A stretch of 64,000 nt of DNA, taken from contig JAFWKK010000042.1 of the NCBI GenBank assembly GCA_017514235.1, positions 73,483 to 137,482 on the forward strand, in the 5' to 3' direction. Position numbers and translations under genes: made by a program. Of the stretch, positions 30,055 through 46,535 are shown one piece after another. The stretch is from Kiritimatiellia bacterium. Its GTDB lineage: Bacteria; Verrucomicrobiota; Kiritimatiellia; RFP12; UBA1067. A model generated the notes under the pieces. The model ran no database searches and had not been told where the DNA came from. It saw nothing but the letters and a program-made list of their open reading frames with translations. Every line of letters begins with the position of its first letter. Within the stretch, counting starts at the first letter, position 1.

Positions 30055-31608
30055 ATGTCCCCGAATCGCAGGATATTCCTGAACATCGTTGCCACGTACG
30101 GACGGAGTCTGTACACGCTGGTGGTAGGATTGTTCTGCGGTCGGTGGACGCTGATGGCGCTGGGGGAGGTCGATTACGGACTCATGGGAGTCGTTGGCGG
30201 ACTGATTGCCTTCGTGCAGTATTTCGACAGCATCTTGGCGAGTGCAATCGGAAGGTTCTTCGCCATTGCGGTCGGCGAAGGGAAGGCCGACCGGAAATCA
30301 GGCATTGAATCCGGCCGCAAGTGGTTCACTACAGCGGTGGTGATCCAAACGGCATTGCCGACTTTTCTTCTCATAACGTTCTATCCGGTCGGGGAGTGGG
30401 CCGTCAGGCATTTTCTGACGATTCCGCCGGACAGGGTTCAGGCGTGCGTGTGGGTGTGGAGATTCGTGTGCCTGTCAGGATATTTAGGCATGCTGACGAT
30501 GCCGTTCCGTTCCATGTACATGGCGCATCAATATATTGCGGAGCTTACATTTTATTCTTTTATGACTACTACGTTTAACGCCTGTTTTCTCTATTACATG
30601 GTAACGCATCCCGGCGTTTGGCTGGCCAAGTTCGCGTTCTGGCAATGTCTGCTTTCGATGTTGCCCGAATTGATCATCGCAATTAGGGCATATTTCCTTT
30701 TTCCGGAATGCAGAGTGGTAAGGCGGCACATTAGATGCTGGTGCAACATCAGGGCGATGGCGGGTTTTTCGCTGTGGACGGCAATCGGTACGCTGGGTGT
30801 CATTCTCCGCGGGCAGGGAATATCCATTCTCGTCAACAAGATTTATGGCTCGCGAGTCAATGCCGGCGTAGCGGTCGGTTATTCGCTTTCTAATCATTGC
30901 AACTCATTGACGGATAGCATGTTCAACGTATTTTCCCCTGCCATCTACAACGCCTGGGGTGAGAAAAATTACGACAAGGCGCGCAGCATGGCCTACCAGA
31001 TATGCAGGGTCGGCACGTTGTTTCTTCTTGTTTTCGCGCTTCCGCTTTCACTGGAAGTTGACGAGGTGCTGCGATTGTGGCTTAAGAATCCCCCGCAATA
31101 TGCCGCTGGGATCTTTCTTTTTGTCATGGCGTCAACGGTAATCGACAAGATGGCGGCCGGCCACATGATATGTGTCAGTGCCAGCGGCAAGGTCGCCGGA
31201 TACCAATCGTTTCTTGGCACGACGCTGATTTTGACGTTGCCGCTCGCATGGTTGCTTGTAAAGCTCGGCATGGGCGTATATTCCGTGGGTTGGGCGCTGG
31301 TGGCGACGATGGCGGTTTGTTCTTCGGGGCGGATTTGGTTCGCGAGACGGCTTGTAGGCATGAGCGGACGATACTGGATACGGAGTGTCGTCGTCCCGCT
31401 TTCGGGGGTTGTCGTTCTGTCTCTTTGCGTGGGGTCCTTGCCTCGATTTTTTCTGTCGGCCTCCCTTGCGAGAGTCTGTTTCACGGTGGGGGTCGTCGAA
31501 TTTTTCATGATTCCATTTTCATGGTTCTTCGTCTTGAGCGGCTCCGAGCGCGCTTTTGTGGTGTCGAGGGTTAATGCTGTCGTTTCAAAAATGAGGAGAA
31601 CGTGCTAA
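30055..31608 (+). CDS. polysaccharide biosynthesis protein / Wzx-like flippase (MOP superfamily), paralog 1
   Basis: about 14 predicted TM helices; N-terminal 60 aa nearly identical to the paralog at 35171. Confidence 0.65.
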   Translation: MSPNRRIFLNIVATYGRSLYTLVVGLFCGRWTLMALGEVDYGLMGVVGGLIAFVQYFDSILASAIGRFFAIAVGEGKADRKSGIESGRKWFTTAVVIQTALPTFLLITFYPVGEWAVRHFLTIPPDRVQACVWVWRFVCLSGYLGMLTMPFRSMYMAHQYIAELTFYSFMTTTFNACFLYYMVTHPGVWLAKFAFWQCLLSMLPELIIAIRAYFLFPECRVVRRHIRCWCNIRAMAGFSLWTAIGTLGVILRGQGISILVNKIYGSRVNAGVAVGYSLSNHCNSLTDSMFNVFSPAIYNAWGEKNYDKARSMAYQICRVGTLFLLVFALPLSLEVDEVLRLWLKNPPQYAAGIFLFVMASTVIDKMAAGHMICVSASGKVAGYQSFLGTTLILTLPLAWLLVKLGMGVYSVGWALVATMAVCSSGRIWFARRLVGMSGRYWIRSVVVPLSGVVVLSLCVGSLPRFFLSASLARVCFTVGVVEFFMIPFSWFFVLSGSERAFVVSRVNAVVSKMRRTC

Positions 31609-32615
31609 TGTTCAAGGATTTTTTCAGGGTTGTTTTGCGTCCGTTTCGCATGGCTTGTGGGGCGTTATTGAGATATTTGCACGTTCGGCGGTTGTTCAGG
31701 TATGATCGCTTGCGGTTCATGAAGAATTCGGGCACGTTCGGAACTGGGAAGAAGCGGGAATACGTGCAGAAGGAAAAAATCATCATGGGGTATCATGTGT
31801 TGGAGAAAGGGTTGACAATGCCATCCTGTCGCTTGGGTTTTGGCCGCGAAGCTGTTTTAGATCTCATGCATGCGATTAGCGAATATGAAAATGACTTCGG
31901 GAAATCTGACGGGCAAGTGGATCATGCGTCTAGGTGCGTCAAGGCATATCTTCATCTTCATGAAGATGAACAGTATGACATGGCTGCCGACGCAGGCTTT
32001 TGGAATGCAGTAAAGGATTTTTGCGATGCGAGGAGCGGGGCGCCTGCCCAGATGATGAAATTCGACAGGGATGATTTCTTTGGCCAAGTTAATTCCCCGT
32101 TCGAGGTTTTTGCAAAATCAAGGCATACGGTAAGACACTTTGCGGGGACGGTTTCAGATGAGACCATTGAGAAAGCTGTGGATTTGGCGAGGACATCTCC
32201 TTCGGCGTGCAATAGGCAATACGTTAGAGTCCACTGCTTGCGAGACCACAAGTTGCATGAGAAAATATATAAGTTGCAAAATGGGAATCGGGGATTTGCC
32301 TCGGCAGCGGACAAATTGCTGATAGTGACTTCTGATCTTAATGGGTTGCGGTGGCATGAAGAGCGGAATGATGTCTTCACTAATGCCGGTATCTTCATAA
32401 TGAATCTCATGTATGCATTGCATTATAACCGCTTGGGGTGCTGTGTCTTAAACTGGTCTGTGTCACCAGACTCTGACAAGCGATTGAGAGGCATAATACC
32501 ATTAAAAGAGTCAGAGACCGTTGTCGCCTTGATAGCAGTCGGCCATCTTCCAGACGACTTTCTTGTGGCGGCTTCTCCTAGGAAACCTCTGCAGGAAGTC
32601 CTTGTCTGGCATTAA
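31608..32615 (+). CDS. nitroreductase-family domain protein (N-terminal unknown domain)
   Basis: C-terminal SRHTVRHF...SPSACNRQ nitroreductase motifs; ATG overlaps the wzx-1 stop (TAATG). Confidence 0.55.
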   Translation: MFKDFFRVVLRPFRMACGALLRYLHVRRLFRYDRLRFMKNSGTFGTGKKREYVQKEKIIMGYHVLEKGLTMPSCRLGFGREAVLDLMHAISEYENDFGKSDGQVDHASRCVKAYLHLHEDEQYDMAADAGFWNAVKDFCDARSGAPAQMMKFDRDDFFGQVNSPFEVFAKSRHTVRHFAGTVSDETIEKAVDLARTSPSACNRQYVRVHCLRDHKLHEKIYKLQNGNRGFASAADKLLIVTSDLNGLRWHEERNDVFTNAGIFIMNLMYALHYNRLGCCVLNWSVSPDSDKRLRGIIPLKESETVVALIAVGHLPDDFLVAASPRKPLQEVLVWH

Positions 32616-32642
32616 TCCTGATCCGTCTACATATAGCGGCTG

Positions 32643-45104: not shown

Positions 45105-45461
45105 GTGGTTAAGACTTATAAAGAGTTAGTGGCTTGGCAAAAGGGGATGTCGCTTGTGAAAGCCGTCTATGCTTTAGTGAAACGGTTCCCAAAAGTTGAG
45201 CAATATCGACTTGTTGACCAGTTGACGCGTGCTGCAGTCAGTGTGCCATCTAACATTGCAGAGGGATTCGGTAGGGCTACCAACAAAGATTTCGCACACT
45301 TCCTGTCGCAGGCTCGAGGCTCGCTGTTTGAAGTAGAGACGCAGTTGTTGATAGCAAAGGATCTTGGATTTGTTGGTGATGTAACGTCAGAGCTTGAACT
45401 ATCTTCCGAACTTGGGAAGATCCTAAATGGTCTCATACGTAAACTACTCCCTGTCCCCTAA
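45105..45461 (+). CDS. four-helix-bundle protein (23S rRNA IVS protein / Avd-like family), copy 2
   Basis: LVAWQKGMSLVKAVYALVKRFPKVEQYRLVDQLTRAAVSVPSNIAEGFGRATNKDFAHFLSQARGSLFEVETQL; GTG start. Confidence 0.8.
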   Translation: MVKTYKELVAWQKGMSLVKAVYALVKRFPKVEQYRLVDQLTRAAVSVPSNIAEGFGRATNKDFAHFLSQARGSLFEVETQLLIAKDLGFVGDVTSELELSSELGKILNGLIRKLLPVP

Positions 45462-45497
45462 CTCCTGACTCCTGTCTCCTGACTCCTGCCCCCTAAA
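45462..45497 (+). repeat. pyrimidine-rich short array (CTCCTGACTCCTGTCTCCTGACTCCTGCCCC) downstream of four-helix-bundle gene 2 and directly before the GT2 start
   Basis: seen directly. Confidence 0.6.
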
Positions 45498-46535
45498 ATG
45501 CCTTTCTTCTCCATCATCATCCCGGTCTACAATGTCGCGCCCTATCTGCGCGAGTGCTTGGACTCTGTCTTGGCGCAGTCATTTGCAGATTGGGAAGCGA
45601 TCTGTGTCGATGACGGTTCGACTGATGATTCAGGCGCGATTCTAGATGAATATGCGGCGAAGGATCCGCGCTTTCATGTTATCCATCAGCAAAATGCAGG
45701 TGTCAGCGCCGCAAGAAACAAGGCGCTTGAAGTCGTTGCAGGGAAATGGTTTCTTTTTCTGGATGGTGATGATTTACTTTATAGCGATGCTCTGGAAGTT
45801 TTTATTCCATATATAAGATATGATGATGTTGATGGGATTCTTGTGCATCCATATACTTCTTCTTGGGATGGGAATGGTGTCCCACAACGAAATTGTGTTG
45901 TCGATGTTCTTGTGAAAGATGCTTCAAAGGAAGATTTATTCATAGGACCGTATGCGGCAAATGGTTTTTCATTTTCGCGTATTTATTCCACAAGAATATT
46001 TAGGCACTTACGTTTTAGGGAAGACATGTCCATGTCGGAAGATGTTTGTTTTTGGTTTGATGCTTTAAGCGTTACTGCGCGGTGGATGATATTGCGTGCG
46101 GAATATTATCTTTATCGTCAACGGGGCGATTCTGTGTGTGGGGAAAACGATCCACATAAATGCGGACAGATTCTGGAATCCGTTTTACATGCGCTTAATG
46201 TAATTGACAAACGGCTTGATGTTTCTAAATCTGCTGGAGCTAGATATTTGAGGCGTTTCCCGTCGTCTCCAAGATATTATATTGGTCTTGCCGTATGCAG
46301 ATATAAAGAACTTACTGATGAGGAATGGGATGATTTGTCGAATAAAGTAAAAGCCATTGATGCTATATGTGGGCGATGGTCATTGGGTGTTTTTGTCAAT
46401 TTATTAATGGCGTTTGCGGTAAATAGACGATTGCGTTTCGTGCTGCCAATATTGCTAAGAATGAGTAATTGCTATGATTGTCTGAGAATTCAAGTTGGTG
46501 GATTGTCACGAAAATTAGGTTTTATAAGAAGATGA
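45498..46535 (+). CDS. family 2 glycosyltransferase (conserved 5' module)
   Basis: [42 protein letters not shown]. Confidence 0.8.
   Translation: [345 protein letters not shown]

Follow-up and report, generated by a model that had tools for sequence, protein, structure and literature searches.

Wzx/Wzy-dependent polysaccharide loci, such as the O-antigen clusters of Escherichia coli and Salmonella, the cps locus of Streptococcus pneumoniae and the capsular polysaccharide (CPS) loci of Bacteroides, are mosaic, and silent-cassette conversion is known from the pilE/pilS system of Neisseria and from vlsE of Borrelia. Here we analyze a glycan locus in a 64,000-nucleotide stretch of the genome of a Kiritimatiellia bacterium (GenBank assembly GCA_017514235.1, contig JAFWKK010000042.1, positions 73,483 to 137,482; the whole stretch is referred to as the window, and all coordinates count from its first nucleotide). 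In the region 30055-46535, three intact family 2 glycosyltransferase (GT2) genes, GT2a (33779-34798), GT2b (41875-42879) and GT2d (45498-46535), and a GT2 pseudogene consisting of an orphan 5' module (43117-43400), have similar 5' ends, which are referred to below as modules or handles. A first-pass annotation of the sequence had proposed that homologous recombination at these handles swaps the specificity-determining 3' parts of the genes, giving antigenic variation of the polysaccharide. Our analysis favors, with a probability of roughly three in four, ordinary paralogy within an old GT2 family, combined with historical mosaicism in a composite island and with no exchange in this genome today.

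The window resembles the mosaic Wzx/Wzy loci in that it contains a low-GC island beside core genes, with similar gene content, and shares some blocks with related loci and differs from them in others. It departs from these loci in having two flippase-like genes in one co-oriented array, in being punctuated by three 23S_rRNA_IVP genes, and in its uncultured Kiritimatiellae host; furthermore, a conserved right flank cannot be seen within the window. For handle-mediated deletions and hybrid genes, the closest functional precedent is the Neisseria lgt locus (lgtA/lgtD, lgtB/lgtE), where, as in the window, paralogous glycosyltransferase genes are directly oriented in one locus; a reduced form of lgt is attributed to recombination between the paralogues. 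Unlike in lgt, similarity in the window does not extend past the first 150-280 nt, where it amounts to 77-84%. Individual reports on lgt describe reading frames 1 and 2 as homologous to 4 and 5 (PMC2191774), a reduced locus with only lgtA and lgtE in strain 15253 (PMC2192810), and rapid variation that stems from poly-G tracts (PMC2192423). The GT2 genes of the window were found to have no homopolymer switch. With pilE/pilS and vlsE, the window has in common only the abstract idea of conserved segments that flank variable ones; unlike those systems, it has no expression site with a silent-copy archive, its conserved segments are not near-identical, and no variants were seen among the assemblies. 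None of the three features of a pilE/pilS-like system that were looked for was found, namely, silent partial copies, near-identical long segments and alternative junctions (the latter in consensus assemblies of one clone).

At the protein level, the GT2 products were compared with GT-A enzymes of this family, namely, Streptococcus GalT1 (5HEA), a putative glycosyltransferase of Bacteroides fragilis (3BCV), the E. coli K4 chondroitin polymerase (2Z86) and Bacillus subtilis SpsA (1QG8). Like these, they match PF00535, align over the N-terminal ~100 residues, and contain the VDDGS and DxD (DGDD) motifs; the GT2 family in general combines a conserved N-terminal half, which binds the nucleotide, with a variable C-terminal half. 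Unlike GT2 proteins in general, the subfamily represented in the window has an unusually invariant stretch of 50 N-terminal amino acids: in proteins with an overall identity of 36-61%, identity in this stretch is usually 90% or more.

Extent and divergence of the shared 5' module

Comparison of the window with itself by BLASTN showed that GT2a, GT2b, GT2d and the pseudogene fragment have similar 5' ends: over 150-276 nt, nucleotide identity is 77-84% (78-82% for the GT2a module against the others), and the E values of 1e-29 to 1e-79 are well outside what chance would produce. The modules extend over positions 33785-33954 in GT2a, 41884-42158 in GT2b and 45501-45718 in GT2d; all copies are in direct orientation, four of them within 12 kb. 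Translations and alignment confirmed the peptide motif quoted in the first-pass annotation, and each of the three intact genes encodes CVDDGSTD and FLDGDD. To call the modules near-identical is, however, too strong for 77-84% identity and short exact runs, the longest being 17, 18 and 24 nt among the intact genes; GT2b and the pseudogene share a run of 36 nt. The complete divergence said to follow the module was observed at the nucleotide level and not at the amino acid level, where the C-terminal 233 residues of GT2a and GT2b are 35% identical and have motifs in common, such as FMEDNVFM and RWRLGF. No similarity was detected ahead of the start codons (30-43% identity in the 45 nt preceding the module).

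Nei-Gojobori counts were obtained separately for the first 45 codons, codons 45-95 and the remainder of the GT2 genes. In the first 45 codons, where amino acid identity is 82-91%, the proportion of synonymous differences (pS) is 0.57-0.71 and the synonymous distance (dS) is 1.1-2.3; in codons 45-95 and in the remainder of the genes, synonymous sites are saturated. Expected nucleotide identity was derived by back-translating the same proteins with the codon usage of the island. For the first 45 codons, the observed identity of 0.76-0.83 compares with an expected 0.69-0.73 (z = 2.2-3.4), that is, an excess of 6-9 points; past codon 45, most comparisons showed no excess, with the exception of GT2b vs. 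GT2d in codons 45-95 (z = 2.3). Because the back-translation expectation is close to the observation, nearly all of the nucleotide similarity is explained by amino acid conservation. The pattern that the first-pass annotation itself had named as evidence of ordinary paralogy, saturated synonymous sites with nucleotide identity no higher than amino acid conservation requires, is, to a large extent, the pattern found.

Against the family baseline, the residual excess appears to vanish: the handles of the window are 0.77-0.81 identical among themselves vs. 0.77-0.83 identical to handles of four loci in other genomes (L010, L020, L013 and L015), and comparison with the two handles of L088 gave 86-89% identity. 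Intragenomic homogenization (concerted evolution) was not found in the window, where the handles are as close to those of other genomes as to their own paralogues.

The conservation of the module is family-wide. A database search with GT2d returned 5870 hits, the best 120 of which are only 36-61% identical overall; in almost all of these best 120, the N-terminal 50 amino acids are nearly constant, the variants differing at 1-5 residues. A scan of one genome per species with two motif patterns gave matches in at least 598 stretches, from Kiritimatiellae, Lentisphaerota, Victivallales, Alphaproteobacteria, Bacteroidales, Porphyromonas, Treponema, Gemmiger, Lachnospiraceae and Catellatospora. Residues 2-100 of GT2d align with the solved GT2 chains 5HEA, 3BCV and 2Z86, and most matches in PDB and NCBIfam are limited to residues ~2-110; none of the NCBIfam equivalog cut-offs is reached by the window GT2 proteins. 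Because most of these matches stop near residue 100-110, the module would represent the half of the GT-A fold that binds the nucleotide sugar, extending to the DxD motif. In GT-A enzymes, the variable remainder is the acceptor side, and we infer donor and acceptor roles for the two halves of the window proteins from this correspondence. A fourth intact GT2 gene of the island (52474-53748; PF00535, E = 1e-22) lacks this module at its N terminus (HPVVSVHMITYNHEPYIRQAIEGV...), which makes the module a trait of the subfamily and not of all GT2 genes here.

Possible old recombination at or near the handle

In other genomes, adjacent GT2 paralogues are mosaic: their first 180-324 nt are 88-98% identical, the similarity ends at the DxDD motif, and the C-terminal parts are only 23-37% identical at the amino acid level. 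Among pairs with divergent C-terminal parts, identity of at least 86% in the first 150 nt of the handle was observed in 7 of 46 within-genome pairs and in none of the between-genome pairs (0 of 4856). Two alphaproteobacterial metagenome-assembled genomes (MAGs), represented by loci L025 and L031, share a tandem GT2 pair in which the 3' parts group by orthology (79-86% identity vs. 26-48% between paralogues), whereas the first 264 nt group by genome (83-100% between paralogues vs. 75-84% between orthologues), with the switch at the DxD motif. This pattern is a textbook case of gene conversion restricted to the handle. Concerted evolution was detected in L025/L031, L015, L017, L018, L084 and L011/L013, which belong to Alphaproteobacteria, Lentisphaerota, another Kiritimatiellia and Gemmiger, and not in the window genome; orphan handles are present in the window, in L015 and in L026.

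The orphan handle of the window is a genuine pseudogene, as had been proposed, with a frameshift near 43250, an in-frame stop and an end just after DGDDVYD (the DxD motif) at ~43400. It is 84% identical to GT2b over 276 nt and is itself mosaic: the first ~59 nt resemble GT2d and GT2a (11 of 13 informative sites) and the rest resembles GT2b (54 of 65; max-chi-square permutation p < 0.0002), alternatively, the first 60 nt of GT2b may have undergone a burst of change. The 465-nt segment that holds the pseudogene is bracketed by a 16-nt exact direct repeat, GAACCACGAAATACAC (42958-42973 and 43423-43438). This sequence has just two copies in the window, two matches were also obtained in 2 of 100 shuffles, and alignment of the surroundings of the two copies revealed no longer duplicated unit; the repeat may be a rearrangement footprint.

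The GC content of third codon positions (GC3) differs between handle and gene body. In GT2d, GC3 is 0.64 in the first 135 nt vs. 0.28 in the remainder (Fisher p = 5e-6); in the close subfamily, handle GC3 is above that of the gene body by 0.11 (p = 0.008, n = 21), and the same trend was observed in L107 (0.64 vs. 0.40) and L108 (0.49 vs. 0.37).

Loci L107 and L108/L109 contain an orthologous version of the second of the two gene blocks that end in a GT2 gene (block 2, 35171-42879), at ~74-75% nucleotide identity and colinear with the window from 35171 to ~42065-42083, so that colinearity ends ~190-210 nt into GT2b. The GT2 gene of L108 is of the GT2d type (C-terminal part 49% identical) and runs into IspD and epimerase genes, as GT2d does in the window. 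Compared to L108/L109, the window has an extra ~3.6 kb bounded by two handles, which consists of the 3' part of GT2b, the pseudogene, a DUF4143 ATPase gene, the second 23S_rRNA_IVP gene (IVP2) and the GT2d handle. L107 has a third type of C-terminal domain, followed by different downstream genes. This pattern fits an exchange within the handle and, equally, whole-gene insertion at the border between the pyruvyl transferase gene (pyrT) and the GT2 gene. Placement of the window/L107/L108 breakpoints inside or outside the handle by dS was uninformative, with pS values close to saturation throughout (0.53-0.82 in the flanks and 0.45-0.83 in the handles). Block 2 is also reticulate in its inner genes: the gene at 36734-38119 is closer to its counterpart in L108 (82% nucleotide identity, pS = 0.53) than in L107 (72%), and for the short-chain dehydrogenase/reductase (SDR) gene the relation is reversed (75% to L107, 68% to L108). 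The block-2 genes are reordered in L105 and L110, with a thiamine pyrophosphate (TPP) enzyme gene followed by SDR, wzx, the gene for the 461-residue protein and pyrT; L110 has one extra gene before pyrT.

Among the explanations that go beyond paralogy, the one that survives best holds that, on evolutionary time-scales, conversion resets the handles and crossovers join an upstream block to imported 3' GT2 domains and downstream genes, this locus having been built partly in such a way. It is supported by the excess of highly similar handles among within-genome pairs, by the L025/L031 conversion with its switch at DxD, by the orphan handles in three loci, by a mosaic pseudogene that ends exactly at the DxD boundary, by the occurrence of block 2 before three different C-terminal domains (in the window, L107 and L108/L109) together with the handle-bounded 3.6 kb, and by the GC3-richer handles. 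Conversely, the breakpoints cannot be assigned to the handle rather than to the pyrT/GT2 border, given handles that are 72-83% alike and saturated flanks; the GC3 excess may be due to translational-accuracy selection at constrained residues in a GC-rich host; and the evidence of conversion comes entirely from other genomes. We consider this account possible, with the balance tilted somewhat against it. A broader formulation is more tentative still: in a widespread, mostly gut and rumen GT2 subfamily, the first ~135-280 nt, encoding the nucleotide-binding half as far as DxD, might function as an evolutionary recombination junction. It would be homogenized time and again between tandem paralogues by conversion that ends sharply on the 3' side, would remain richer in GC3 than the gene body, and would join conserved upstream blocks to interchangeable cassettes of acceptor domains and downstream genes; the island, with its mosaic orphan handle and its handle-bounded 3.6-kb indel, would be a fossil record of this process.

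Several observations weigh against the reading favored here, ordinary paralogy with no exchange today. The synonymous-identity excess in the first 45 codons, albeit small, persists (z = 2.2-3.4), and the fraction of identical codons is 0.49-0.59 for pairs of intact genes and 0.59-0.62 for pairs with the pseudogene vs. 0.37-0.42 ± 0.10 between genomes; these handles may carry a weak signal of old homogenization. Handle GC3 exceeds the expectation from composition in GT2a (0.73 vs. 0.46) and GT2d (0.64 vs. 0.44 ± 0.07), which pure protein-level selection does not explain. Finally, the assemblies compared below represent one clone and are consensus sequences, so that rare variants would go unseen.

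Search for present-day variation at the handles

Look-ups with exact proteins identified seven contigs (L001-L007) from at least five samples, and an NCBI MAG, that are colinear with the window. These contigs differ from the window by 0-3 single-nucleotide polymorphisms over up to 21 kb (99.97-100% identity), the pseudogene included, and GT2b is identical in seven contigs from other assemblies. No alternative GT2 junctions were found among L001-L007, which are consensus assemblies of one clone. Silent 3' cassettes were not found in the window either: tblastn searches with the three C-terminal parts recovered only the intact genes and the GT2a/GT2b pair, and the sole partial GT2 copy is a 5' fragment, not a 3' cassette. 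A scan of the JGI metagenomes with a 36-nt degenerate handle pattern yielded only three loci, with handles 78-89% identical, and no population of same-handle variants with other 3' ends. In sample SAMN15830013, contig L103 ends at 34005 and contig L005 starts at 33951, so that the break, with a ~55-nt overlap, is located just 3' of the GT2a handle; this may hint at a variant junction or be due to chance, other contig ends being at unrelated positions.

Active shuffling, in which the four modules would serve as RecA-type handles that swap 3' specificity parts and produce frequent antigenic variation in present populations, is very unlikely in light of these data. The presence of four direct handle copies within 12 kb, the mosaic origin of the orphan handle and the conversion between tandem paralogues demonstrable in other genomes are compatible with it. 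However, exact runs of 17-24 nt between intact genes are at or below the minimal efficient processing segment of recombination limited by RecA and mismatch repair, and ~20% divergence suppresses exchange by orders of magnitude; the handles of the window are only 77-84% identical. Furthermore, pS is 0.57-0.71, the window handles are no closer to each other than to those of other genomes, silent 3' cassettes were not found in the window, and the seven contigs from at least five samples have one fixed arrangement. Exchange between direct repeats could only delete or duplicate and would not make a reversible switch. Rapid cassette shuffling for antigenic variation is, accordingly, not supported; what is left of the original proposal is the idea of the handle as a recombination substrate on evolutionary time-scales, without the ongoing exchange and the antigenic variation.

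The two gene blocks

The region contains two blocks with a common layout, for which the previously assigned gene coordinates were correct: Pfam searches, too, yielded the order of a flippase-like gene, then pyruvyl transferase and GT2 in each, all on the plus strand. Block 1 starts with wzx1 (30055-31608), encoding a 517-residue multi-pass membrane protein, a putative Wzx/MOP-type flippase without a Pfam or NCBIfam match; next come a nitroreductase-family gene (31602-32615; PF00881, E = 4.9e-15), polysaccharide pyruvyl transferase 1 (pyrT1, 32643-33782; PF04230, E = 1.3e-23), whose stop codon overlaps the start of GT2a, and GT2a itself (PF00535, E = 2e-38), with the DxD motif at ~codon 93. Block 2 consists of wzx2 (35171-36733), encoding a putative flippase of 520 residues with a sub-threshold MatE match (22.8 bits vs. 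the cut-off of 24.9), the 36734-38119 gene, the TPP enzyme gene (38098-39927; PF02776, E = 1.2e-17), the SDR gene (39932-40756; PF00106, E = 1.2e-41), pyrT2 (40758-41873; PF04230, E = 1.9e-30) and GT2b (PF00535, E = 9.9e-36). The block-2 genes between wzx2 and pyrT2 had been described as three sugar-modification genes; one of them, 36734-38119, encodes a 461-residue product that has no recognizable family and no Pfam or NCBIfam match (its orthologues in L107 and L108 are 71-83% identical at the amino acid level). The PF04230 scores of the two pyruvyl transferases are 84.8 and 107.2 bits (cut-off 25.3), and the PF00535 scores of GT2a, GT2b and GT2d, 132.4, 123.6 and 133.2 bits, respectively, are above the gathering cut-off of 23.3. 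The 'wzx' label was not confirmed by Pfam, NCBIfam or PDB, wzx1 having no Pfam match even at E ≤ 10 and wzx2 only the MatE match; some wzx homologues at 50-58% identity carry PF01554 or PF13440 and the JGI name 'O-antigen/teichoic acid export membrane protein'.

The proteins encoded by wzx1 and wzx2 are 50% identical over their full length, with a gradient from the N to the C terminus (78%, 62%, 45%, 35%). They do share their first ~60 codons, as had been noted (78% amino acid identity, and 95% in the first 21 residues), and the homology is not confined to that part. Synonymous differences are close to saturation (pS = 0.70 in the first 21 codons and 0.86, that is, saturated, in the first 60). 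The pyrT1 and pyrT2 products are only 27% identical. By comparison, homologues of wzx2 at 76-83% identity occur in other metagenomes, and pyrT2 is 54% identical to a gene in L018 (a Ca. Spyradenecus MAG, Lentisphaerota). The order wzx ... pyrT - GT2 was also found in L008, L013, L014, L015, L018, L019, L023 and L027, and the pyrT-GT2 pair alone in L012 and L028; elsewhere, as in the window, an IVP gene is sometimes located upstream of this module, for example, in the Kiritimatiellia locus L015.

A recent tandem duplication, in this locus, of a unit comprising wzx, modification genes, pyruvyl transferase and GT2, followed by divergence, would fit the same gene order in both blocks, and GT2a and GT2b are, indeed, mutual best C-terminal matches among the sampled loci (33-35% amino acid identity). 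Such a local event is highly improbable and was rejected because of the divergence of the wzx and pyrT pairs and because wzx2 and pyrT2 have closer relatives elsewhere than wzx1 and pyrT1; in addition, the same order is widespread in other phyla, and the inner genes differ (nitroreductase vs. the 461-residue protein, TPP enzyme and SDR). The two blocks appear to be ancient paralogues, two instances of a widely distributed type of module.

Codon usage within the module bears on a further explanation. All four window copies encode YLRE as TAT CTG CGC GAG and the V, L and Q of VLAQ as GTC, TTG and CAG, and the VLAQ alanine codon is GCG in the three intact GT2 genes. Among 50 dereplicated family modules, synonymous codons vary freely at every codon position, and the codons common to the window copies (CTG, CGC, GAG, CAG) are the commonest in the family. 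Retention of the shared 5' sequence as an RNA or DNA element, for example, a translation-initiation structure or a regulator-binding site, to which the identical YLRE and VLAQ codons might point, was rejected as the least probable of the explanations because of this free synonymous variation and the dissimilarity upstream of the start codons.

Intergenic genes, IVP genes and variable repeats

Three further genes on the plus strand lie between these elements. A small DUF6922 protein is encoded between the blocks (34887-35129; PF21956, E = 5.5e-16), an AAA_14/DUF4143 ATPase between the pseudogene and GT2d (43704-44864; PF13635, E = 2.6e-31; PF13173, E = 3.4e-20), and IVP2 directly before GT2d (PF00535, E = 1.1e-38). 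GC-rich palindromes were identified upstream of the DUF4143 ATPase gene (43601-43667) and at the left edge of the island (28590-28649), with 81% and 86% self-complementarity, respectively.

The three 23S_rRNA_IVP genes (PF05635, bAvd-like four-helix bundle; the IVP2 match was precomputed on identical contigs) are located at block borders, IVP1 at 28933-29304, IVP2 at 45105-45461 and IVP3 at 60932-61321. The first and the third are flanked by inverted simple tandem repeats (regions 28879-29427 and 60858-61457), and the IVP1 flanks fold into a ~55-bp interrupted stem with the reading frame in the loop (RNA minimum free energy z = -4.6), like an rRNA intervening sequence. A 47-nt repeat (family D8), 91% identical between its copies (TGAGGTATTCGGCTGCATACCCCACGGGCGCGGAGCGT...), directly precedes two of the three genes, IVP1 (28835-28881) and IVP2 (45029-45075).

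Repeats were compared among loci L091-L104, assemblies of one strain that are otherwise 99.9-100% identical. Copy number varies among assemblies in two arrays, one downstream of IVP1 (19-nt unit) and the other downstream of IVP3 (8-nt unit, 24-nt super-unit): the spacer after IVP1 (29305-29435) is 131, 112 or 93 nt long, and that before the Wzy-like gene (61322-61457) measures 136 or 88 nt. The first array is interrupted by N gaps in two scaffolds, and the ends of four contigs fall within the second; neither the upstream inverted arms nor any of the GT2 handles vary. It is in these repeats, and not in the GT2 handles, that the island is demonstrably variable, and the arrays are candidates for expression (phase) variation of the helix-turn-helix (HTH)/wzx1 block and of the Wzy-like gene. 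Simple repeats of the AACTCC type, related to those at 29300-29430, also occur at 63410-63560 within an open frame (that of 63302), where they encode a low-complexity insert rich in P, T, Q and L; its flanks are glycosyltransferase-like by eye (a GT4 gene is called in L091). In L094 (SAMN15830014), the GT4 gene at 58478-59572 is split in two by a 1-nt deletion in an A5 run (59094-59098), which is either a true frameshift variant or an assembly error.

Setting of the island

Across the window, GC content is 0.62-0.67 before ~28.5 kb and 0.43-0.52 after it, and all long open reading frames past ~28.5 kb are on the plus strand. The last GC-rich gene (26203-28416) is GH28-like, and its product is 100% identical to an NCBI protein of 'MAG: Kiritimatiellae bacterium'; in a relative, L087, the orthologue of this flank gene (77% identical) is followed by Plug and ABC-transporter genes, with no glycan genes there. 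Because of the GC drop and the lack of the island in L087, the low-GC region is probably a lineage-specific, horizontally acquired island. Judged by Pfam, its gene content fits a Wzx/Wzy-type glycan locus, with two pyruvyl transferases alongside the two flippase-like membrane proteins; GT4, GT8 and GT25 glycosyltransferases in addition to four intact GT2 genes and one fragment; IspD, an epimerase, LicD, DegT, an ATP-grasp enzyme and a pyridoxal phosphate (PLP)-dependent decarboxylase; and an acyltransferase, a member of the sulfatase family and a polymerase/ligase-like protein of the Wzy_C type, whose Pfam match is sub-threshold.

Discussion

In the interpretation that we favor, ordinary paralogy in a composite island, the region would belong to a glycan-biosynthesis island of the Wzx/Wzy type, low in GC and at least 35 kb long, inside the GC-rich genome of a rumen Kiritimatiellae bacterium. 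The island may be viewed as a string of widely distributed gene modules, two of which start with a flippase-like gene and end with a pyruvyl transferase gene followed by GT2, with abutting or overlapping coding regions. GT2a, GT2b, GT2d and the pseudogene would belong to one large GT2 subfamily in which the N-terminal ~92 residues, the putative nucleotide-sugar-binding half up to DxD, are subject to very strong purifying selection, whereas hypervariability is seen in the C-terminal ~240 residues, presumably the part that binds the acceptor. The similarity of the 5' ends (77-84%) would then be mainly a by-product of protein conservation and of family-wide codon preferences. The window copies appear to be old, near synonymous saturation, and neither homogenized nor exchanged at present. 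On evolutionary time-scales, the locus would be a mosaic with the GT2 5' module at block junctions, and we infer a part of the handle in past rearrangements: old recombination at or beside the module probably gave rise to the orphan 5' fragment and to the extra segment from GT2b to IVP2.

The shared 5' ends in the window are, in this interpretation, a feature that is ordinary for GT2 paralogues of a mosaic polysaccharide locus rather than a new device of antigenic variation, and the copy-number-variable repeats may be a better lead for short-term variation of the surface glycan. If the family-level pattern, in which conversion is restricted to the 5' module, handles are GC3-rich and blocks meet at the handle, is true, it would provide a concrete rule for the diversification of glycan loci in uncultured gut bacteria and would point to natural splice points for the engineering of chimeric GT-A enzymes.

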